A stretch of DNA of 64,000 nt from an uncultured Actinomycetota bacterium (GTDB lineage Bacteria; Actinomycetota; Actinomycetes; Propionibacteriales; Nocardioidaceae), in assembly GCA_963824105.1 (NCBI GenBank), contig CAWGNN010000009.1, forward strand, positions 500,279-564,278. Reading direction: 5' to 3'. Below, piece by piece: positions 20,829 to 63,750 of the stretch (the first letter of the stretch is position 1; each line of letters starts with the position of its first letter). Made by a program: the position numbers and the translations under genes. The notes under the pieces are model-generated. The model ran no database searches. It was not told the DNA's origin and saw only the letters and a program-made list of their open reading frames with translations.

Positions 20829-21227
20829 CTAGCGAGGGCGGGGTTGGCCGGGGGCCGTACAACCGATGAGCTTGGCCGCGGTGGCCGGCTGCTCGGTGCG
20901 TATCGAGACGTTGAGCGTCTGGTTCGGCGGCCCGGAGGTGACCGGCACCGAGAGCTCCCCGACGATCGAGTGGTCGTAGGCCAGCGCCTGGACCAGGCAG
21001 GTCGCCTGGGTGCCTTCGGTGGATCGGTCGACCTGGATGCGCACGGTGAGCTGTGTGGGGGAGTCCACGGTGAAGCCGACCAGCTGAGACGTGGCCTGCG
21101 GGTGGATGTAGGCGATGCCTGCCCAGACGAACCAGCCCAGCGCCGCGGCGACGATCAGCGCGGCGGCGCCGACGGCCACGAGGCGGCTCCGGCGATCGTT
21201 GCCATACCGCTGGGTCAGGTCTGTCAC
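20829..21227 (-). CDS. DUF4307-like single-pass membrane protein (Rv1081c position)
   Basis: One N-terminal TM helix. Conserved position between greA and mca. Confidence 0.5.
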
Positions 21228-21250
21228 GAGCTCATCCTAGGATTGCCGCC

Positions 21251-22129
21251 ATGCTCCGGTTGATGCACGTCCACGCCCACCCCGACGACGAGTCGAGCAA
21301 GGGTGCGGCGAGCACGGCCATGTACGTGGCTCAGGGCGTCGACGTCCATGTGGTCACGTGCACCGGCGGGGAGCGAGGATCCATCCTCAACCCGAACATG
21401 GACCGGCCCGACATTCTGGCGAACATCGCCGAGGTCCGTCGACAGGAGATGGATCGTGCCCGCGAGATCCTGGGTGTCACGCAGGACTGGCTGGGGTTCG
21501 TCGACTCGGGCTTTCCCGAGGGTGACCCCCCGCCGCCCTTACCGGAGGGCTGCTTCGCGCTGCAGCCCGTGGAGGCGGCCGCGGCACCGCTGGTCCGGCT
21601 GATGAGGAAGTTCCGGCCGCACGTGGTGACGACGTACGACGAGAACGGCGGCTACCCGCACCCGGACCACATCATGACCCACAAGATTTCCCTCGCGGCC
21701 TTCCACGCCGCCGGTGACCCGGCCGCCTACCCGGAGGAGGGCGAGCCCTGGCAGCCGCTCAAGCTGTACTACCAGCACGGCTTCTACCGGGAGAAGTTCC
21801 AGGCCCTCCACGACGAGATGCTCCGTCGCGGCCTCGATTCGCCCTACGGTGAGCGGCTCGAGAACTGGACGCCGGACCCGACCCACTTCTCGCGGATCAC
21901 CACTCGCGTGCCGTGCGCGGACTACTTCGCCGCCCGGGACCGGGCGCTCCTCGCGCACGCGACGCAGGTCGACCCCGAGGGCCCCTGGTTCGCCTGCCCA
22001 CTGGAGGTGCACCAGGCCGCTTGGCCGACCGAGGACTTCGAGCTGGCCATCAGCCATGTGGACTCCGCGATCCCGGAGACCGATCTCTTCGCCGGAGTCC
22101 GAGAGCCTGCTGAGAAGATGACCTCATGA
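21251..22129 (+). CDS. mca: mycothiol S-conjugate amidase (LmbE family)
   Basis: [28 protein letters not shown]. Synteny with Rv1082. Confidence 0.9.
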
Positions 22130-52237: not shown

Positions 52238-52531
52238 TTAGGGATGACGGGTCGGGGCCGGGTCGACTCGGTCTATCCAGAGGAGTCGGTCGCGGTCCCC
52301 GGTCTGCTCAGGGACGCTCGTGAACGCCTCCGCCAGGAACCGCACCTTCGCCTGCCCGTTGCCCGCTGTCGAAGTCACGGATCGTCGGGGTGAGCGGCAC
52401 GACCTGCGCGGCTGCTGGACCGTGTTGAGCACCTTGTCGGCGGTCATGACCACCGCAGGTCTCGGGAAGTCAGCCTCGTGACCCTGGGGAAGGCCGAAAT
52501 CGAGGACGACGACGTCACCCGAGCTCGGCAT
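52238..52531 (-). pseudogene. PemK/MazF-like toxin, probably frame-disrupted
   Basis: The N-terminus GDVVVLDFGLPQGHEADFPRPAVVMTAD is MazF-like. The expected VVPLTPTIR strand is only readable in another frame (about 52385-52411). The remainder of the annotated frame is Arg/Ser-rich. Confidence 0.4.
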
Positions 52532-52709
52532 CCAGCCGCGCGCTCTCTCCAGCGGTGAGCTGTGTCGCCAACTGAACGCCGACGTGTTCCTGGGCCAGTG
52601 ACTTCACAGCCAGTGTCACGTTGTGCCCGACAGTGGTGCCAATCGACTCGGCGAGCCTCTTGATCTCGTCGTGGGTGGCGATGTCGATCCGCACACTGGT
52701 GGATTGCAT
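52515..52709 (-). CDS. RHH/MazE-like antitoxin
   Basis: MQSTSVRIDIATHDEIKRLAESIG RHH N-terminus. Overlaps the toxin start by 17 nt. Confidence 0.55.
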   Translation of the reverse strand: MQSTSVRIDIATHDEIKRLAESIGTTVGHNVTLAVKSLAQEHVGVQLATQLTAGESARLDAELG

Positions 52710-52733
52710 GCAGGTCAGCATGCATCTGCTCAG

Positions 52734-55120: not shown

Positions 55121-56197
55121 GTGGCACTCACGATCGGCATCGTCGGACTCCCCAATGCGGGCAAGTCGACCCTCTTCAACGCGCTGACGAAGAACAACGT
55201 CCTCGCGGCCAACTACCCCTTCGCGACCATCGAGCCCAACGTGGGGGTCGTGGCGCTGCCCGACCCCCGACTGGACAAGCTCGCCGGGATCTTCGGATCC
55301 GAGCGGATCATCCCTGCCACCGTGCAGTTCGTCGACATCGCCGGCATCGTCAAGGGGGCGTCGGAGGGCGAGGGGTTGGGCAACAAGTTCCTCTCCCACA
55401 TCCGCGAGTCGGACGCGATCTGTCAGGTCACCCGGGTCTTCCGCGACGAGGACGTCTCTCACGTCGAGGGCGAGGTGAACCCGGCCAGCGACATCACCAC
55501 CATCCAGACCGAGCTGATCCTCGCCGACCTGCAGACGCTGGAGAAGGCGATCCCTCGGCTGGAGAAGGAAGCCAAGGGTAGGAAGGAGATGGTCCCGGCG
55601 CTCGAGTCCGCCCAGGCAGCCAAGGACGCGCTGGAGGCGGGCACGCCGATCATCTCCACGACCATCGACCGCGCGCAGATCCGCGAACTGATGCTGCTGA
55701 CCGCAAAGCCCTACCTCTACGTCTTCAACTGCGACGCCGACGAGCTGGGCGACGATGAGCTCAAGTCGAGGATGCGCGAGCTGGTCGCTCCTGCCGAGGC
55801 GATCTTCCTCGACGCGAAGTTCGAGGCGGAGCTCGTCGAGCTCGACGACGAGAACGAGGCGCGGGAGATGCTCCACGAGCTCGGTGTCGAGGAGCCCGGC
55901 CTCGACGTGCTCGCCAGGGTCGGCTTCGACACCCTCGGCCTACAGACCTATCTCACCGCCGGCCCCAAAGAGTCCCGAGCGTGGCAGATCCACAAGGGCG
56001 ACACCGCACCCGAGGCAGCCGGCGTCATTCACACCGACTTCCAGAAGGGTTTCATCAAGGCCGAGATCGTCTCCTACAACGACCTGGTCTCAGCGGGTTC
56101 GATGGCGGCGGCGCGGGCGGCGGGCAAGGTGCGCATGGAGGGCAAGGACTACGTGATGGCCGACGGAGACATCGTAGAGTTCAGGTTCAACGTGTAG
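55121..56197 (+). CDS. ychF: redox-regulated ATPase YchF
   Basis: [31 protein letters not shown] domain, C-terminal [13 protein letters not shown] start preferred over the track TTG at 55112. Confidence 0.95.
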
Positions 56198-56629
56198 CGG
56201 TCAGTCCCGACCTGCTCCTCATCCACGAGGGGATCGGACTGCACGGTCACCTCGTCGGCGAGGGTGAGTTCGACCGACCCACCGAGGTATTCCTGCCAGA
56301 CATCGTTTACGACGTCTCGGCTCTGGGGGGACAGACTCTCCTCGGGTGCGACGCGGTCGCGGCTGCAATGCGGGCGCTCCGTGACCGAAATCCTGTCGCT
56401 CACCACGTGTCCAACATCGTCGTTGAGCAGTTCGATGGAGGCCGGGCGAGAGTACGGTCGAGGGGATTGGCCGCCATGGCCGACGGCTCGGCGGGTTCCG
56501 TCGTCTATCTCACGAGCTCGTTCGGTCAGGCGGTGACGGTTGGCGAATTTCTCGGCGCACAGTGCTGCCTCGTAGACAGCCGCTGACTCCGTCTGCCTGA
56601 CCGTGGACTCATCTTCGTAACCTGATGGG

Positions 56630-56683
56630 GTCGAGTTTCGTCACCGAGCAACGACTTCTGGGAAGAAGTAGCTGTTCTTCAGA
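56630..56683 (+). repeat. ychF-end-derived cassette boundary repeat R1
   Basis: GTCGAGTTTCGTCACCGAGCAACGACTTCTGGGAAGAAGTAGCTGTTCTTCAGA. In frame it reads VEFRHRATTSGKK*. Confidence 0.85.
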
Positions 56684-56689
56684 CATCCG

Positions 56690-57574
56690 ATGGAGGAAGT
56701 CATGGACGAGAGCCGGTTCGCGGTCGAAGGGGTCCAGGTCGGTCACTGGACGGACGACACCGGCCTGACCGGATGCACCGTGGTCGAGCTCCCCGTAGGG
56801 ACGACTGCTTCGTATGAGGCGCGCGGGGGAGCCCCTGCATCGCGAGAGCTGCTGCTCTTGGAGCCCGACAAGACGGTGCAGTCGGTCGACGCGGTCCTGC
56901 TCACTGGCGGGTCTGCTTTCGGTCTCGCCGCGGCCGACGGGGTGATGGAGCACTACCGGCTCCAGGGACGCGGCGTCCCCACCCCAGGCGGCCCCGTCCC
57001 GATCGTTCCCACCCTCGCGCTCTTCGATCTCGCGGTGGGTAACCCGTTGGCCCACCCAGACGCCGATGCCGGACGAGCGGCAGCCCAGTCCGTGCGAGCG
57101 CGGCAGGTCTTGCGGGGTCGAGTGGGAGCCGGGACGGGTGCGCAGGTGAGCCATTGGCGCGGCCCCGAGGGCCGACGGCCCGGAGGTCTGGCGTATGCCG
57201 AGCACCGCCTCGGCGACCTCGCGGTCGCCGTCTTGTGTGTCGTCAACGCCTTTGGTGACGTCGACGACGGCTCGTCTTCTGTGGTCTTCGATGCAGTTGC
57301 CGCCCTGGAGTCACCATTCGCCTTCGACCAGGGTCGAAGCCACACCACGATCGGGGTGGTCGTCACCAATGCGCGCCTGGACAAGGTGGGGTGCCGGATC
57401 GTCGCCCAAGGGGCTCACGACGGCCTCGCGCGCGCGTTGACGCCGCCTCACACCCGCTTCGACGGCGACGCCTTCGTGGCTGCCGCCACCGGCCAGGTCG
57501 ACGCCCCGGTCGACGCGGTGCGCCTGCTCGCTCTGGCCTGCGTCACCGACGCAGTGCGGTCGGTCGCCTCCTGA
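56690..57574 (+). CDS. P1/S58 family peptidase (DmpA-like L-aminopeptidase/D-esterase)
   Basis: TDDTGLTGCTVV, LLTGGSAFGL, VGAGTGA. Alternative start ATG 56702 behind GGAGGA. Confidence 0.8.
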   Translation: MEEVMDESRFAVEGVQVGHWTDDTGLTGCTVVELPVGTTASYEARGGAPASRELLLLEPDKTVQSVDAVLLTGGSAFGLAAADGVMEHYRLQGRGVPTPGGPVPIVPTLALFDLAVGNPLAHPDADAGRAAAQSVRARQVLRGRVGAGTGAQVSHWRGPEGRRPGGLAYAEHRLGDLAVAVLCVVNAFGDVDDGSSSVVFDAVAALESPFAFDQGRSHTTIGVVVTNARLDKVGCRIVAQGAHDGLARALTPPHTRFDGDAFVAAATGQVDAPVDAVRLLALACVTDAVRSVAS

Positions 57575-57713: not shown

Positions 57714-57768
57714 GTCGAGTTCGGTCACGGTGTGGCAACTTCCGGGGAAGAAGTAGCTCGGCTCTGAA
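57714..57768 (+). repeat. cassette boundary repeat R2
   Basis: GTCGAGTTCGGTCACGGTGTGGCAACTTCCGGGGAAGAAGTAGCTCGGCTCTGAA. Confidence 0.8.
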
Positions 57769-57793: not shown

Positions 57794-58528
57794 TCAGCTG
57801 CCGTGCAGCGCTACCGCGTCGAGCATCGCCCCGGCCGCGTCATCGTGCCGGCCCAGCGCGACGTTCAGGACGGTCGTGGCCGTCCAGGCGGGGTCGTCCC
57901 ACCGCTCGGGCGGGTTCTCCCGCCAGACCGACATCGAGTCGGTGAGCTCGGTCCGCACGAGCCCCGGCAGTACGTCGAGCGCCACCACGCCCGTGCCGGC
58001 CAGCGAGCCCGCCAGTGTTTGGGTGAGCAGGGTCGCTGCCCGCTTGCCTACCGCATAGCCGGTGTATGTGCCCGACAGTGCTGCTGCCCGCGCCTCGCTC
58101 GCGATGGTGACCACCCGACCGCGGCCGCGCGCCACCATGTCGCCGAGCACGATCGCGTCCAACAGCAGGGGCCCGCGCAGGCACGTCTCGACCACCGACC
58201 AGGTGACCGCGGGGTCTACTTCCCACAGCGGCACTGCCTCGGGCTCGATCGCCGCAGCCGAGTGCACCAGGAGGTCGGTTGGCCCGTACTCCGAGCGCAC
58301 CCTTGACAGTGCCGCGGCGGTCTCCTCCAGGCTGGTGATGTCGCAGGGAACGGCGAATGCCAGCGGGCCGAGCGCGCTCGCGGCTTCGTCCAGCACGTCG
58401 GCCCTTCGGCCGAGGAGTGCGACGCGCATTCCGGCCTCAACCAAGGAGCGGGCCACTGCCAGGCCGATGCCGGTGCCGCCGCCGGTGACCAGACCGACCT
58501 GGTCGGCCAGGGGAGTGCTGTCGTCCAT
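57794..58528 (-). CDS. SDR family oxidoreductase
   Basis: VTGGGTGIGLA cofactor motif, YAVGKRA (YxxxK). Start at MDDSTP. Confidence 0.85.
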   Translation of the reverse strand: MDDSTPLADQVGLVTGGGTGIGLAVARSLVEAGMRVALLGRRADVLDEAASALGPLAFAVPCDITSLEETAAALSRVRSEYGPTDLLVHSAAAIEPEAVPLWEVDPAVTWSVVETCLRGPLLLDAIVLGDMVARGRGRVVTIASEARAAALSGTYTGYAVGKRAATLLTQTLAGSLAGTGVVALDVLPGLVRTELTDSMSVWRENPPERWDDPAWTATTVLNVALGRHDDAAGAMLDAVALHGS

Positions 58529-58635
58529 GGTCCCGAGCCTAGGGCGCGTCCTTGGAGCCACGCTCACGAGCACATGGTGATTGCAGCTGACCGCTGGATG
58601 GATGAGCTCGCGTCGCTGAGCGGAGACCAGGCGTG

Positions 58636-58691
58636 GTCGAGTTCCGGCACGGAGCAACATCGTCTGGGAAGAAGTAGCTGTGCCTCCTGCA
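58636..58691 (+). repeat. cassette boundary repeat R3
   Basis: GTCGAGTTCCGGCACGGAGCAACATCGTCTGGGAAGAAGTAGCTGTGCCTCCTGCA. In frame it reads VEFRHGATSSGKK*. Confidence 0.85.
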
Positions 58692-58753: not shown

Positions 58754-59647
58754 TCACGGCGCACAGGCCCCGGAACCGAGTTTGGCGAGCCCGGTGAGGT
58801 CGCCGGCACCGTAGTTGGTCTGTCCGCGCGACTCCGGGAACATGATCTGGGAAGGATCCTGAACATGACCGAGACCAAGGACATGCCCTAGTTCGTGCAT
58901 GACCACCGCTTGCTCGGCCTGCGTGTGATGTTGCGCGCTTTCCTGGTCGAACCAACTGCTCAGAAGAGCGATCTGTCCGGTGACATAGTGCGGTTGGTTG
59001 GCGCCGTTCACCACGAGAAGCTCGCTGCCGCCGAGCCCGACCGTATCGGCGTTGGCACTTGCGCTGTCCAGGGTCGTGGGGAAGCTGATGAGCACCGGCT
59101 TTGGGACAACCGCATTCTTGCGTTCGGCCCAGGTGTCTGCTGTGAGTCCGTCGTAGACGAATTCAAGGCCGCTCGCGGCTTGGGTCTTCTTCACCGCGGG
59201 CTGGATGAAGGAGAGAAAGTCTGGTGGGGCTCCGCCGGGGTTGATGACGTAGTGAATGGGCTTGCACGGGTCGTAGGTCACCGGGTCGCCTGCTGAGTCC
59301 GTGTTCTCAATCGAGTAGTTCAACGACGACACCGTCGGCGTGACGACGGGAAGAAGACGATTCGGCCGTCCGATGATGCCGATCGCCTCGGCAAGAGGCT
59401 TGATCGGACCGGGGTTCACAAGTACCAAGGCAACAACAACGCCCCCGAGTCCGACCGCAGTGGCCGTGGCGATGCCCAGTCGGCGAAGACGGCCCCGCCG
59501 GTTCCGATACCGGAGGGCGGCTCGCTCTGCCGTGGCCGCGCGAGCAGCGGACTCAGCTGTCTGGCGCGTGACCCCGGTCCAGCGGGTGCCGTCGTGCCAC
59601 CGCTCCCCATCCCCCTGAGGGTCGGGATGCCAACCCCGCTCAGTCAC
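58754..59647 (-). CDS. membrane-anchored metzincin (matrixin-like Zn protease) with N-terminal DUF2510 motif
   Basis: GWHPDPQGDGERWHDGTRWT (DUF2510), one TM helix, HELGHVLGLGH zinc motif. GTG start at 59647. Confidence 0.75.
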   Translation of the reverse strand: MTERGWHPDPQGDGERWHDGTRWTGVTRQTAESAARAATAERAALRYRNRRGRLRRLGIATATAVGLGGVVVALVLVNPGPIKPLAEAIGIIGRPNRLLPVVTPTVSSLNYSIENTDSAGDPVTYDPCKPIHYVINPGGAPPDFLSFIQPAVKKTQAASGLEFVYDGLTADTWAERKNAVVPKPVLISFPTTLDSASANADTVGLGGSELLVVNGANQPHYVTGQIALLSSWFDQESAQHHTQAEQAVVMHELGHVLGLGHVQDPSQIMFPESRGQTNYGAGDLTGLAKLGSGACAP

Positions 59648-59742: not shown

Positions 59743-59798
59743 ATCGAGTTCCGTCACGGAGCAACAACGTCTGGGAAGAAGTAACTGGGCTCTGAGCA
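59743..59798 (+). repeat. cassette boundary repeat R4
   Basis: ATCGAGTTCCGTCACGGAGCAACAACGTCTGGGAAGAAGTAACTGGGCTCTGAGCA. In frame it reads IEFRHGATTSGKK*. Confidence 0.85.
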
Positions 59799-59838: not shown

Positions 59839-60261
59839 GTGAGCGATGTTCTGGACACGGGGCCGTTCTTCCACGGGACCAAAGCGGACCTGAGGGTGGG
59901 CGAACTTCTGGCGGCGGGCTTCCGATCGAACTATCGACCCGAAGTGTCGATGAACCACATCTACTTCACAGCTTTGCTGGACGGTGCTGGGCTTGCTGCG
60001 GAGCTCGCCGTGGAGCTCGCCGGCGGCGACGGGATCCCACGCGTCTACCTCGTTGAGCCGACCGGAGCGTTCGAGAACGACCCCAACGTGACCGACAAGA
60101 AGTTCCCCGGGAACCCAACCCGGTCCTACCGCAGCCGAGAACCGCTCAGGATCATCGACGAGGTGACTGACTGGAAGCGCCTCACCCCTGACGAGCTCCA
60201 AGCATGGCGTGAGCGACTGGCGGTTCTCCTGGGGGAAGAAGGCGGAGAGATCATCAACTGA
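59839..60261 (+). CDS. arr: rifampin ADP-ribosyltransferase
   Basis: GPFFHGTKADL, GFRSNY, HIYFTALLD, VYLVEPTGAFENDPNVTDKKFPGNPTRSYRSREPLRII is near-colinear with Arr-2/Arr-ms as I remember them. Confidence 0.88.
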   Translation: MSDVLDTGPFFHGTKADLRVGELLAAGFRSNYRPEVSMNHIYFTALLDGAGLAAELAVELAGGDGIPRVYLVEPTGAFENDPNVTDKKFPGNPTRSYRSREPLRIIDEVTDWKRLTPDELQAWRERLAVLLGEEGGEIIN

Positions 60262-60298: not shown

Positions 60299-60340
60299 GT
60301 CGAGTTCCGCTTCGACGTCTCGACCTGGGGAGGGCGCAGA
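60299..60340 (+). repeat. cassette boundary repeat R5 (ychF-terminus type)
   Basis: GTCGAGTTCCGCTTCGACGTCTCGACCTGGGGAGGGCGCAGA begins with VEFRFDV and is followed by CATCGG as in R1/R3/R4. Confidence 0.75.
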
Positions 60341-60384
60341 CATCGGAGTGTGACGCGTGATGCGCATCGCGCTACACTCGGCTA

Positions 60385-60663
60385 GTGATCAGGTCGTTCA
60401 AACACAAGGGCTTGCGGGACTTGTTCACGAAGGGCAAGGCGACGGGTGTTCAACCGGCACATGCGCGGCGCCTCAGGATGCAGTTGGCGGCGCTTCACAC
60501 GGCCAGCAGTATCGATGACATGGACATTCCCGGATACCGCTTACATCCGCTCAAGGGTGCGGGCCGGGGGCGTTGGTCGATCACGGTCAATGGCAACTGG
60601 AGGGTGACCTTCGAGTTCCGCGACGGGGACGCCTACGTTCTAGATTACGAGGACTATCACTGA
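60385..60663 (+). CDS. higB: HigB-type (RelE/ParE superfamily) toxin
   Basis: IRSFKHKGLRDLF...HPLKG...WSITVNGNWRVTFEF...V.LDYEDYH is canonical for the HigB killer protein. Confidence 0.88.
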   Translation: MIRSFKHKGLRDLFTKGKATGVQPAHARRLRMQLAALHTASSIDDMDIPGYRLHPLKGAGRGRWSITVNGNWRVTFEFRDGDAYVLDYEDYH

Positions 60664-60968
60664 TGACGACCACGATGCAGATGTACGACCCGCCGCATCC
60701 GGGCGAGTTCATCACGGAGACGTATCTGACTCCCTTTGGTATCAGCGGGCGGTTGTTGGCTACCCACCTCGGGGTCTCGGCGTCGACGCTGGCGCGTGTG
60801 CTCAACGGGTCCAGTCGTGTCACCCCAGAGATGGCCCTCCGATTGGGCCGGGTGATTGGACGCTCGCCCGAGAGCTGGCTAGCCATGCAGGACGCCTATG
60901 ACCTCTGGGAGGCGCGTCCGAAGGTCGACGTCTCGACGCTCGCTCCGGTCAAGTTCGCCGTCTCCTAG
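60663..60968 (+). CDS. higA: HigA antitoxin (XRE-family HTH)
   Basis: PPHPGEFITETYL...LATHLGVSASTLARVLNG...TPEMALRL. 1-nt overlap with the higB stop. Confidence 0.88.
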   Translation: MTTTMQMYDPPHPGEFITETYLTPFGISGRLLATHLGVSASTLARVLNGSSRVTPEMALRLGRVIGRSPESWLAMQDAYDLWEARPKVDVSTLAPVKFAVS

Positions 60969-61016
60969 GTGTCCCGACGGCGTGGCGAAGGAGAGACAGT
61001 TACGGCGCTGAAGCGG

Positions 61017-61060
61017 GTGGAGTTCCGCTTCAACGCGTGGGTCTTCTGCTGGGACGTCCG
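61017..61060 (+). repeat. cassette boundary repeat R6 (ychF-terminus type)
   Basis: GTGGAGTTCCGCTTCAACGCGTGGGTCTTCTGCTGGGACGTCCG begins with VEFRFNA, versus resident VEFRFNV*. Confidence 0.75.
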
Positions 61061-61104: not shown

Positions 61105-61446
61105 ATGAGCGATGAACAGGTGCCGGAGACCAGAGGTGTCGAGGCAGAGTTGTTGGCCGCGATTGACCTCGGCCCCGAGATCGAGGGTATGGACGGCTTC
61201 CAGCTTCGGATGCGGAGGTTCACGTTCGCGCCGGGCGCGGTATTCGGCCCTCTCCACGACCACGCCGGCAGACCGGGAACGGTCTTTGTGCTGCAGGGGA
61301 CGATCACCGACCATCGGGACGGGATCGCCACGGACTACGGTCCGGGCCTGGGCTGGCCCGAGGACCGGAACACCGTCCATTGGCTCGAGAACCGTGGGTC
61401 GGTTTCTGCGGTGGAGATCTCGGTCGACGTCCTCGGGCAGCAGTAA
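61105..61446 (+). CDS. cupin domain protein
   Basis: 113 aa, GPLHDH...G...H.LEN cupin motifs. Confidence 0.7.
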   Translation: MSDEQVPETRGVEAELLAAIDLGPEIEGMDGFQLRMRRFTFAPGAVFGPLHDHAGRPGTVFVLQGTITDHRDGIATDYGPGLGWPEDRNTVHWLENRGSVSAVEISVDVLGQQ

Positions 61447-61505
61447 GCGCTGCCCGAGAACCTCCCGTTTCCTGGTGTGACGCTCCTTCACAACACCATT
61501 CGGCG

Positions 61506-61552
61506 GAGGTCCGCCTCAACGCTTTGTGTCGGCGCCCAAGAAGTAGGTCAGG
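61506..61552 (+). repeat. degenerate cassette boundary repeat R6b
   Basis: GAGGTCCGCCTCAACGCTTTGTGTCGGCGCCCAAGAAGTAGGTCAGG keeps the (T)CCGC(T)TCAACGC and AAGAAGTAG blocks. Confidence 0.5.
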
Positions 61553-61561
61553 GCCGGCGGC

Positions 61562-61876
61562 TTAGCCGGCCACGCGCTGCTTGAGGGCATGGAGCAGGTC
61601 CTGAAGCGCTGGGACGTTCCGCAGACCATCTGGGGTCTGATACACCCGGCATGCCAGCGAGCCCTGGGTCCCAGTGGTTTGGAAGAGATCGGCTCCGTCG
61701 ACGACGAACGCCGGCGATCCCCCGAACCCCCGGGCCCGTGCCGCGTCCTCGGTTTCGATGACCCCCACGGTGAAGGTCGCGTCCGTGAGCCCGACGTCGT
61801 CCAGCGCGACGCGGAGCAGCTCCGAGGCATCCTCGGCGCCGGGGCACCCCGGGATCACCAGTAGTTGAATGTCCAC
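61562..61876 (-). CDS. thioredoxin/glutaredoxin-fold small protein (monothiol CPGA motif)
   Basis: IQLLVIPGCPGAE...FGGSPAFVVDG pattern of the thioredoxin-like family. GTG start. Confidence 0.6.
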   Translation of the reverse strand: MDIQLLVIPGCPGAEDASELLRVALDDVGLTDATFTVGVIETEDAARARGFGGSPAFVVDGADLFQTTGTQGSLACRVYQTPDGLRNVPALQDLLHALKQRVAG

Positions 61877-61942: not shown

Positions 61943-61995
61943 ATTCGAGTTCGGTCCGGGCACCGACTTCGGGGAAGACGTAGCCTCTCGCCTGA
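61943..61995 (+). repeat. cassette boundary repeat R7
   Basis: ATTCGAGTTCGGTCCGGGCACCGACTTCGGGGAAGACGTAGCCTCTCGCCTGA. Confidence 0.7.
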
Positions 61996-62040: not shown

Positions 62041-62553
62041 GTGAGTCAGCAGCAGATCGTCGTCATGGGCGTCTCGGGCAGTGGCAAGTCGACGACTGGC
62101 GAGAGGCTTGCGCGGGCTCTGGGATGGTCGTTCGCCGAGGGGGACGACTTCCACCCCGAGGAGAACGTGCGCAAGATGGCAGAGGGCCGTGCCTTGACCG
62201 ACGAGGATCGATGGCCCTGGTTGTTGGCAATCCGTGCCTGGATGACGAGGGAAGATCTTGCTGGCCGCGACAGCGTTGTCTCCTGCTCGGCGTTGAGACG
62301 TGCCTACCGAGACGTGTTGCGGCAGGGGCCGAGTCGTGTGACGTTCGCCTATCTCGAAGTTTCCGAGGAGGCTCTCAGAGCTCGTCTCGCTGGGCGCACC
62401 GGGCACTTCATGCCGGAATCGTTGCTCGACTCTCAGCTGAACACTCTCGAAGTCCCCGGGGAGGACGAGGGTGCCGTGGTCGTGAACGGAAACCAGACAC
62501 CAGCGGAGATCGTCGCGGACATCCTGTCCGCGTTGCACCAGCAAGAAGCCTGA
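62041..62553 (+). CDS. gntK: gluconokinase (GntK/IdnK family)
   Basis: VVMGVSGSGKST P-loop, FAEGDDFHPEENVRKM, LTDEDRWPWL, SCSALRRAYRD. Confidence 0.88.
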   Translation: MSQQQIVVMGVSGSGKSTTGERLARALGWSFAEGDDFHPEENVRKMAEGRALTDEDRWPWLLAIRAWMTREDLAGRDSVVSCSALRRAYRDVLRQGPSRVTFAYLEVSEEALRARLAGRTGHFMPESLLDSQLNTLEVPGEDEGAVVVNGNQTPAEIVADILSALHQQEA

Positions 62554-62784
62554 CTCCGGAAGCGACTCACGCCGGGCTGACCCCCCGCCCATGGCGAGTT
62601 CGACTCGGGCGTGGATCGCGCCGCCACCCGGGCACGAAAGCAGCCAGCTCTCCCTACGTGCTCAAGCATCGCGGCGTGGGGCACCTTGCCCGAGTCGAGA
62701 GTTGTATGCGTTTGTGTACGCCCGTCGCGGTTTCGGCTCCTCACTGAGCGTGGGCGCACGCTACCGTTCCGACATACTGACGTG

Positions 62785-63117
62785 ATGGCGCTTCCCGAGA
62801 CCGATCTCCACCGCATCCACGTCTGGGCTCGTGAGCGCGTCCCCGAGCACCTGTGGGATCAAGTCAAGGTCGAGGCTGATGTCTCCGACCGCTACGTCGA
62901 CATCGTCGAGGTGCGCCCCCCGTGGGACGGCGTCGGCCAGCACACTCGGTTCCCGATCGCACGGCTGCGCTACACGAAGTCGACCGGACTGTGGGCGATC
63001 TACTGGCGCGATCGCCACCTCAAGTTCCACGAGTACAAGCGCAAGCGCCCGACCAAGAACGTCCAGGCTCTCCTGGACCACATCGAGACCAGCGGCGATC
63101 CGATCTTCTGGGGGTAG
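62785..63117 (+). CDS. DUF3024 domain protein
   Basis: VDIVEVRPPWDG...FPIARLRYTKSTGLWAIYWRDRHLKFHEY is typical of DUF3024. Confidence 0.65.
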   Translation: MALPETDLHRIHVWARERVPEHLWDQVKVEADVSDRYVDIVEVRPPWDGVGQHTRFPIARLRYTKSTGLWAIYWRDRHLKFHEYKRKRPTKNVQALLDHIETSGDPIFWG

Positions 63118-63140: not shown

Positions 63141-63165
63141 TATAATGGAGGATAATCTCAGTTAT

Positions 63166-63750
63166 ATGAGAACCGAGGCACCGCTTCTCGCTCCGATCTT
63201 CCGGTCGGACGGTCAGGCGCGCCTGCTCTCCACTTTGTTGCTGACCGGCGACGAACTGAGCGTCACCGATCTGGCCAAACGGGCCGACCTGGCTTATCCG
63301 ACCGCGCACCGCGAGGTGGCGCGCCTGGTGGACGCCGGCATCCTCAGCGAGCGACAGGTGGGCCGCACAAGGTTGATCCGCGCCAACCGCGAGAGCCCGC
63401 TCGTGGACCCCTTGCGCGAGATCCTCACGGTCGCGACCGGCCCGGTCGTGCTCCTGGCCGAGGAGCTTGCCAGCCTCGACGGGATCGAGTCGGCGTTCCT
63501 CTACGGCTCCTTCGCCGCGCGGATGCTCGGGGATGCCGGTCCGGCGCCGCACGACATCGACGTCATGGTGCTCGGTGAGCCCGACGTGGACGCGATCTAC
63601 GAGGCGTGCGCCCGGATCGAGGCGGCCGTGCACCGTCCAGTGAACCCGACGATCCTCACTCCTGAGGAGTTCGCCGCGCCCTCCGCCTTCCTGGACAACG
63701 TGCGCAGCGGCCCGGCGGTCGCTGTGATCGGGGAGCTGCCGTGGCTCTGA
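63166..63750 (+). CDS. winged-helix (ArsR/MarR-like) + minimal nucleotidyltransferase (MNT-type antitoxin-like) protein
   Basis: LSVTDLAKRADLAYPTAHREVARLVDAGIL wHTH. LYGSFAAR...HDIDVMVLG matches the GS..D.D NTase motif. Confidence 0.65.
   Translation: MRTEAPLLAPIFRSDGQARLLSTLLLTGDELSVTDLAKRADLAYPTAHREVARLVDAGILSERQVGRTRLIRANRESPLVDPLREILTVATGPVVLLAEELASLDGIESAFLYGSFAARMLGDAGPAPHDIDVMVLGEPDVDAIYEACARIEAAVHRPVNPTILTPEEFAAPSAFLDNVRSGPAVAVIGELPWL

Follow-up and report, generated by a model that had tools for sequence, protein, structure and literature searches.

In the process of accretion, integrase-less segments bounded by the att sites of an integrase-bearing relative, either an integrative and conjugative element (ICE) or an integrative and mobilizable element (IME), become stacked in tandem as cis-mobilizable elements (CIMEs). 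Integrative mobile elements exploiting Xer (IMEXs), which insert at dif, also lack a recombinase gene; they use a host enzyme encoded elsewhere, restore their target site and accumulate in tandem. Here we analyze a stretch of 64,000 nucleotides (the window) from an uncultured soil actinobacterium of the Nocardioidaceae (assembly GCA_963824105.1, contig CAWGNN010000009.1, positions 500,279 to 564,278), in which the ychF gene (358 aa; window positions 55121-56197, + strand) is followed by an array of ~8.1 kb that comprises at least 10 one-gene cassettes, separated by repeats of 40-60 nt. The array was probably built by repeated site-specific insertion at the 3' end of ychF, an attB in Actinobacteria, by units that would each bring a replacement ending for the gene.

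The islands of the staphylococcal cassette chromosome (SCC) at rlmH consist of tandem cassettes between att sites, and those devoid of ccr are moved by the Ccr serine recombinases (PMC11470126). The ychF locus resembles SCC and SCCmec in the use of a conserved housekeeping gene that is targeted at its 3' end and left intact, in its tandem cassettes, some of them without a recombinase, that are split by short att repeats, and in the association with large serine recombinases (Ccr in the one case, a ychF-linked family in Actinobacteria in the other). In contrast, SCC cassettes measure 17-68 kb, whereas those of the window contain a single gene in 0.4-1.1 kb. Moreover, the anchor is ychF in a different phylum, no recombinase was found in or near the window array, two alternative protein endings are swapped, and a tyrosine integrase family uses the same site. 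The ssrA islands of Dehalococcoides are described as tandem insertions into the 3' end of a gene present in one copy, with the gene end repeated at the junctions, and as contributing much of the variation between strains; a module of integration-associated genes lies beside the predicted integration site in 16 of the 31 islands (PMC3146451). The likeness lies in the tandem insertion and in junctions that repeat the end of a single-copy target, while the target is a tmRNA gene there and a protein open reading frame (ORF) here.

Like the CIMEs of tyrosine-integrase ICEs and IMEs, the window array is closed by a conserved element of ~170 nt together with an att core; the same element also ends the integrase-bearing element of locus L008. 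Unlike CIMEs, the cassettes are single genes and the internal junctions, designated R1 to R8, are without this element. The IMEXs share with the window the recombinase-less units, the restored target and the tandem stacking, but the target in the window lies inside a coding sequence, and no dif-like site was noted there (no formal scan with the dif consensus was made). Integron arrays also contain one-gene cassettes with resistance and toxin-antitoxin cargo and grow at the anchor-proximal side, as the ychF array appears to do, but the window lacks IntI, folded attC sites, a common gene orientation and the promoter logic of integrons. Pipolins with serine recombinases have been reported to use ychF as an integration site in Actinomycetota (PMC11551731, 2024), so that the gene is already a published target of such enzymes. 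The literature searched on integration at ychF yielded only these pipolins for Actinobacteria, in addition to pneumococcal prophages, and no description of recombinase-less cassette arrays at this gene.

The window (68% G+C) encodes a complete YchF protein (Pfam YchF-GTPase_C and MMR_HSR1), in which the YchF-GTPase_C match extends to profile position 84 of 84. An identical protein is encoded on ENA ERZ25039500 contig_20005, and the nearest relatives are found in Nocardioides, Marmoricola and Kribbella, with amino-acid identities of up to 84%. The resident terminus, i.e., the last 24 nt of the gene (56174-56197, + strand; GTAGAGTTCAGGTTCAACGTGTAG), is of a rare type. Of the 77 related loci in which the ychF end is complete, only 3 have the Arg codon AGG at this position, while 65 have CGC. 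The stop codons in the same set were TGA (50), TAG (17) and TAA (10). The resident end of the window combines AGG with a TAG stop, and ends of the same type occur in L037, L047 and L079; an AGG-type end was also observed as an internal copy in Nocardia farcinica (21102), and AGA is the codon of the displaced end in L088. It is thus the resident allele that is unusual, and it was probably itself imported. That this type marks a shared imported arm was considered and rejected, as the post-stop sequences are unrelated in the four genomes that possess it. The DNA downstream of ychF is almost wholly genome-specific across 80 relatives. The 16-mer GAGTTCCGCTTCAACG occurs unchanged just before the final codons of ychF in 55 of the 77 genomes, although the whole gene is only ~82% identical in DNA; codon bias, selection on a DNA site and repeated resetting by incoming elements are possible reasons for this constancy.

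The repeats of the array copy the ychF terminus, and they are of two types. The canonical type was detected with the pattern GTSGAGTTCCGCTTCRACG, which, at up to three mismatches, matched the window at four positions (ychF, R5, R6 and a copy at 61503, termed Rx, which the initial annotation had not listed), compared with 0.09 expected from shuffles. R5 and R6 matched exactly, and ychF and Rx with three mismatches each. The canonical-type copies all lie on the + strand, and their identity to a live terminus falls with distance from ychF: 26/30 in R5 (60299-60319; GTCGAGTTCCGCTTCGACGTC, in which the TAG stop has mutated to TCG), 24/30 in R6 (61017-61037; GTGGAGTTCCGCTTCAACGCG, with Val replaced by Ala and the stop lost), 20/30 in the decayed Rx (61503-61548; canonical head GCGGAGGTCCGCCTCAACG, tail AAGAAGTAGG) and 14/30 in the strongly decayed R8 (62593-62620; GGCGAGTTCGACTCGG..., a weak assignment). 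This gradient of decay fits insertion at the ychF-proximal end.

The initial annotation of this DNA had singled out what proves to be exactly one cassette (R5, higB, higA and R6) and had read R5 and R6 as displaced ychF termini. This reading is borne out: both are near-exact copies of the end that prevails among the relatives, R6 carrying the common 16-mer and R5 differing from it by one base, and the first 19 nt of R6 equal the clade consensus. Most of the relatives also use the same Arg codon as the two repeats, as the numbers given above indicate. The further proposal, that R5 and R6 derive from a different ychF allele, was right insofar as they match the clade-typical allele, but the synonymous divergence on which it was founded stems from the resident allele. 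R1, R3 and R4 possess a stop and, as the initial annotation proposed, could close the ychF ORF. R5 and R6 do not close it; they read on for 24 and 26 codons, respectively, because their stop codons have mutated.

R1, R3 and R4 represent the second, extended type, and they encode, as had been recognized from the outset, an in-frame alternative terminus with its own stop: in the ychF frame all three give VEFRH(G/R)AT(T/S)SGKK and then a stop. A 39-nt pattern matched the three copies (0.00 expected), namely R1 (56630-56673, + strand; VEFRHRATTSGKK-stop), which is intact, R3 (58636-58679, + strand; VEFRHGATSSGKK-stop) and R4 (59743-59786, + strand; IEFRHGATTSGKK-stop, with TAA as the stop codon). 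The same type includes R2 (57714-57758, + strand), which has a +1 frameshift and reads VEFGHGVATSGEEVARL-stop, and the decayed, frame-shifted R7 (61944-61985, + strand; TTCGAGTTCGGTCCGGGCACCGACTTCGGGGAAGACGTAGCC), which is preceded by ychF-like GGCGACG. Six of the nine sites that vary among R1, R3 and R4 (the TAG/TAA stop counted) are at third codon positions and none at second positions. This excess (binomial p about 0.04) is weak but real evidence of a coding history. R3 shares its head, at 28/29 identity, with an internal copy of the array in L085, which is otherwise unrelated, and the live ychF end of L084 (...GCAACAACTTCCCCAAAGAAGTAGCT) resembles R4 (...GCAACAACGTCTGGGAAGAAGTAACT), with the likeness continuing 3' of the stop. 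In the phage collection R3 gave a chance 20-mer only, and matches in the plasmid collection were mostly genuine ychF genes on mislabelled chromosomes. Known RNAs were rejected as an identity for the repeats and for the element that closes the array, since Rfam and tRNA/tmRNA scans of the window and of at least four loci were empty.

Extended ends of this kind are live termini of YchF in other genomes. In a protein search with the YchF C-terminal region fused to ...EFRHGATTSGKK, 57 of the best 120 matches end in FRFNV, and about 55 have extended ends of the same family, such as EFRHGSTSSGKK, EFRHGATTKSAK, EFRHGPTAGSKK, EFRFGSTSTSKK, EFRTGLTSGSKK and EFRFQTTSGGKAAGR. A metagenome scan for the head GAGTTCCGNCACGGNGCAACA recovered 55 contigs; in about 40 of these the head is the resident ychF end (EFRHGAT...), and in about 12 it is an internal copy without ychF before it. 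The stricter pattern GAGTTYNGNCACNGNGN{8,12}GGGAAGAAGTA had no matches in the metagenomes, because the tail is specific to this genome. In L093 (~505-560), the stop of an H-type ychF (VEFRHGATTKSSK-stop) is directly followed by three tandem copies of the 17-nt unit GTCGTCGAAGTAGCGGG.

Insertions that displace the old end were observed directly in other genomes. In six of them, the insertion gives ychF an extended end and the canonical ...FRFNV-stop has been pushed downstream; two of the insertions carry an intact large serine recombinase. In Calidifontibacter terrae (L088), ychF ends in VEFRTGLTSKK-stop, and the gene for a large serine recombinase of 519 aa begins 10 nt after the stop; the element, which also encodes a relaxase and ArdA, extends over 10.7 kb to a canonical VEFRFNV-stop copy. 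In the Jonesiaceae strain BS-20 (L087), where ychF ends in VEFRSGLTSGNKK-stop, an element with a serine recombinase and a relaxase is followed by the canonical end 16 kb downstream. A 9.1-kb element in Propioniferax (L078) lies between two extended ends, and its serine recombinase, of the same family as those of L088 and L087, is degraded and frame-shifted.

On a Joint Genome Institute contig (L092), ychF ends in the H-type VEFRHGSTSSGKK-stop, and a single gene of 122 aa is followed by the canonical end 615 bp on, without a recombinase. L054 has three termini with two one-gene cassettes, and L085 has five termini, the most distal of which is an intact canonical end; both lack a recombinase. 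In Nocardia farcinica NCTC11134 (L095), ychF ends in VEFRHS-stop and four termini are present, again with no recombinase in the array; a higBA cassette of 730 bp and an AadA-like cassette each lie between termini. The latter (21224-22045), a nucleotidyltransferase with an AadA_C domain as a single cassette, parallels Arr in the window. Arrays similar to that of the window occur in N. farcinica and on several soil contigs, and further recombinase-less arrays (L141/L150, L123/L145 and L104) carry aquaporin, SRPBCC and other single genes. In the window, L054, L078, L085, L087, L088, L092 and N. farcinica, the inserts are flanked by direct repeats that duplicate the ychF 3' end.

The position of the crossover was narrowed down from the junctions. 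Host and incoming sequences in L092 still differ at GAA/CAG to the left and differ again from CCAC/CTTC onwards to the right, so that only TTCCG is common to both; the block common to attL and attR in L088 is GGTGGAGTT, and the common blocks of L078 and L087 (12 and 11 nt, respectively) contain both of these. From the overlap of the junction blocks, the crossover is predicted to lie at the TT of GAGTTCCG or directly beside it. In many cases the duplication includes a further 8-16 nt of ychF-like sequence upstream of GAGTTC, so that the cassette site would be a mimic of 50-70 nt of the gene end and not a mere hexamer. Two inferences of the initial annotation find support here: GAGTTC had been named as a candidate crossover core, and the L092 and L088 junctions do overlap at the TT inside it; and each insertion had been thought to bring its own ORF-restoring end, as is seen in L088, L087, L092, L054, L085 and N. 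farcinica. The hexamer had also been called invariant in all copies, which is incorrect, R1 having GAGTTT and Rx GAGGTC; the near-constant part of the core is GAGTT only and, strictly, its second T.

Cassettes are shared between genomes at a higher identity than ychF itself. The DUF3024 cassette (62785-63117, + strand, in the window) and an MNT-HEPN pair together with the element that closes the array are 87-89% identical, as compared with 82% for ychF and 73-76% for the neighbouring phosphatase gene, which indicates horizontal exchange. Only the higBA module revealed which repeat travels with which cargo. In the window, this toxin-antitoxin pair (Pfam; 60385-60968, + strand, with higB at 60385-60663 and higA at 60663-60968) is preceded by R5 and then by a degenerate arm that bears the promoter. 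The module composed of a ychF terminus, a promoter and the higB start GTGATCAG(G/A)TCGTTC is also present in N. farcinica, Calidifontibacter and Propionicimonas; it is located 3' of the resident ychF in Propionicimonas and 3' of a displaced terminus in the other two. As the terminus stands to the left of higBA in all four genomes, the left terminus (R5 here) goes with higBA, and by comparison of these modules the arrangement fits a unit that would supply first the terminus and then the cargo. The other cargoes were uninformative in this respect: the cupin cassettes of L054 and L042 were too divergent (70%) to show boundaries, the DUF3024 flanks shared nothing outside the gene, and the MNT-HEPN module had no repeat at its left boundary.

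In the mechanism that we favour, every incoming unit would carry a look-alike of the ychF end of ~50-70 nt, and strand exchange would take place at or beside the TT of GAGTTCCG. The ychF sequence 3' of the exchange point would be swapped for the ending of the unit, either canonical (...FRFNV-stop) or extended (...FR[H/F/T/S]G.T..KK-stop), leaving ychF intact. The previous ending would come to lie beyond the insert and, freed from selection, would decay there. Repeated rounds, presumably always at the ychF-proximal position, could have stacked at least 10 one-gene cassettes over 8.1 kb, with the youngest beside ychF. R5 and R6 would then be retired canonical endings around higBA, and R1, R3 and R4 retired extended endings that are still intact.

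Recombinases of two classes use the site. Homologues of the L078 serine recombinase form a large actinobacterial family, and both members that were looked up adjoin ychF. In addition, genes of a tyrosine integrase family abut the ychF stop in L020 and L038, and one is located just after a displaced core in L050; a 49-aa remnant of such an integrase abuts the ychF stop in L055, within a 2-kb segment delimited by two canonical ends. In Mulchroom (OQ784832.1), a satellite of Streptomyces phages, an intergenic copy of the ychF end of 44 nt (L094 7336-7379) lies 75 nt from a tyrosine integrase gene. This copy equals the last 13 codons of ychF with the stop, in otherwise AT-rich DNA, and is presumably an attP by which the satellite integrates at ychF.

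The element that closes the array points to the same integrase family. It is a conserved non-coding sequence of ~170 nt, located just past the window (equivalent to ~64205-64370; L081 19085-19250), and is followed by a degenerate displaced ychF end with a 2-nt deletion. It is conserved in nine other loci (L003 13220-13420, L005, L008, L014, L019 with two copies, L028, L029, L049 and L050), with the consensus GGTCCGCAAACAGTCCGCAAGAAGTCC...GCGTTTCCGCAGGTCAGACC...TCGTTCCGCTTCAACGTCTGA, and it shares GCGTTTxCGCAGGTCAGA and AGTCCGCA with the post-stop sequence of ychF in many relatives. Rfam gave no match for it. It marks the end of an integrase-bearing element in L008 and stands before another in L050, and it looks like an arm of the attachment site of the tyrosine integrase. 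The att core and arm element of integrase-bearing relatives bound the entire array, but not its internal junctions.

Several observations weigh against repeated insertion at ychF as the origin of the array. Neither a recombinase gene nor a fragment of one was found in the window array or within 10 kb on either side, and no serine recombinase in the 74 kb of this contig that were examined. A tblastn search of the window, its downstream extension and the arrays with the tyrosine integrase and four serine recombinases yielded nothing in the recombinase-less arrays, and none of 80 loci of the Nocardioidaceae type had a ychF-linked serine recombinase. The left arms of R1-R4 (the CTGAGCGG motif) are unlike those of three serine-recombinase elements. 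Canonical serine integrases recombine only attP with attB and do not normally insert into attL-like sites, so that stacking at such a site needs relaxed specificity. Neither an empty site nor a strain polymorphism was found for this species, L082, L090 and L091 having the same cassette order. Finally, L083, L084 and L086 have an extended end but no displaced copy within 10 kb. Such an end is therefore not always the scar of a fresh insertion and may be long fixed in these three. Because no recombinase was found in or near the window array, we infer that its cassettes were moved in trans by an enzyme encoded elsewhere, which could be a large serine recombinase of the ychF-linked type and/or a tyrosine integrase of the family to which the arm-type element at the array end would belong; the situation would then be like that of the SCC cassettes devoid of ccr.

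A broader reading, which we advance only tentatively, would regard the ychF site as an actinobacterial, integron-like platform for gene capture. Recombinase-less one-gene cassettes, whose sole recombination site would be the mimic of the ychF stop region, would be inserted serially at the TT of GAGTTCCG by an enzyme supplied from elsewhere in the genome or by a visiting element, and each insertion would rewrite the YchF C-terminus. The platform would extend over Propionibacteriales, Mycobacteriales (including N. farcinica) and Micrococcales, and its cargo would comprise resistance genes (arr, aadA-like), toxin-antitoxin pairs and defence genes. To our knowledge, integrons are essentially absent from Actinobacteria, and a ychF site that stacks small cassettes of accessory genes would, if this reading is true, fill the functional gap. 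The ychF end would then be a defined place to seek strain-specific and resistance genes, such as arr here and the aminoglycoside nucleotidyltransferase-like gene in clinical N. farcinica. Under the mechanism that we favour, a conserved GTPase has its last residues repeatedly swapped by mobile DNA (FNV-stop for HGATTSGKK-stop and similar), which explains the otherwise puzzling polymorphism of the YchF C-terminus. The attB conserved in most Actinobacteria may serve as a landing-site tool.

The segments between the repeats could instead be the eroded remains of full-size elements that once had their own recombinase, with neither autonomous small cassettes nor action in trans. Decay of this sort does occur elsewhere, as the integrase remnant of L055 and the frame-shifted serine recombinase of L078 demonstrate. 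The window segments, of 0.4-1.1 kb, each contain one intact ORF or toxin-antitoxin pair packed to within about 20-130 nt of the repeats, tblastn revealed no recombinase fragments, and single genes are packed just as tightly in L092, L141/L150, L054 and N. farcinica. Separate deletions would hardly leave one gene and both sites time after time, and an origin by erosion seems unlikely.

Recombination of the RecA type, with the terminus copies acting as portable homology of 40-70 nt through which cassettes enter or are shuffled without a dedicated site-specific enzyme, is highly improbable, even though no recombinase occurs in cis and, in internal copies, GAGTTCCG is often preceded by 12-25 nt of ychF-like sequence. 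Independent events switch between host and incoming sequence inside one shared block that is at most 5-9 nt long (TTCCG in L092 and GGTGGAGTT in L088; 11-12 nt in L078 and L087), there is no homology to the right of the switch point where an extended end replaces a canonical one, and elements with dedicated recombinases show the same junction architecture. A classical integron, with IntI, attI and folded attC sites, is effectively refuted despite the one-gene cassettes and the typical cargo (arr and toxin-antitoxin here, aadA-like in N. farcinica), since no IntI or other tyrosine recombinase adjoins the array, the repeats copy a coding terminus in place of imperfect palindromes and fold no better than shuffles on either strand (z from -0.9 to +0.8), and the cassette genes lie on both strands.

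The cargo of the window array is diverse. Cassette 0 (56198-56629, - strand) contains one ORF of unknown function (56149-56406 or longer), the frame of which runs 49 nt into the antisense of ychF before its stop; the -48 offset of the integrase ORF in L020 mirrors this overlap, probably because the conserved end of ychF contains no antisense stops. The following cassettes, assigned by Pfam, encode an S58 (DmpA-like) peptidase (cassette 1; 56690-57574, + strand), a short-chain dehydrogenase (cassette 2; 57794-58530, - strand; also a gene call), an M10-like metalloprotease with DUF2510 (cassette 3; 58754-59647, - strand; also a gene call) and an Arr rifampin ADP-ribosyltransferase (cassette 4; 59839-60261, + strand; Arr-ms, E=1.3e-46). 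Beyond higBA, which is cassette 5, are a cupin (cassette 6; 61105-61446, + strand; Pfam), an ORF of 104 aa with no Pfam match (cassette 7; 61562-61876, - strand) and a P-loop kinase resembling gluconokinase and shikimate kinase (cassette 8; 62043-62553, + strand; AAA_33, SKI). The distal part contains, besides the DUF3024 cassette, a helix-turn-helix nucleotidyltransferase (63145-63750, + strand), the 152-aa partner of which is cut by the window end (64000).

A short-read metagenome-assembled genome of this species (GCA_964455115.1; L082 and L090) is broken inside cassette 1 and at the element that closes the array, such that the array forms its own contig of 7.8 kb; these breaks at the array borders suggest assembly trouble or heterogeneity there. 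Outside the array, ~3.5 kb upstream of ychF, a weak match to a PemK/MazF-like toxin was detected (52238-52531, - strand), with a small ORF upstream as its candidate partner (52515-52721, - strand).

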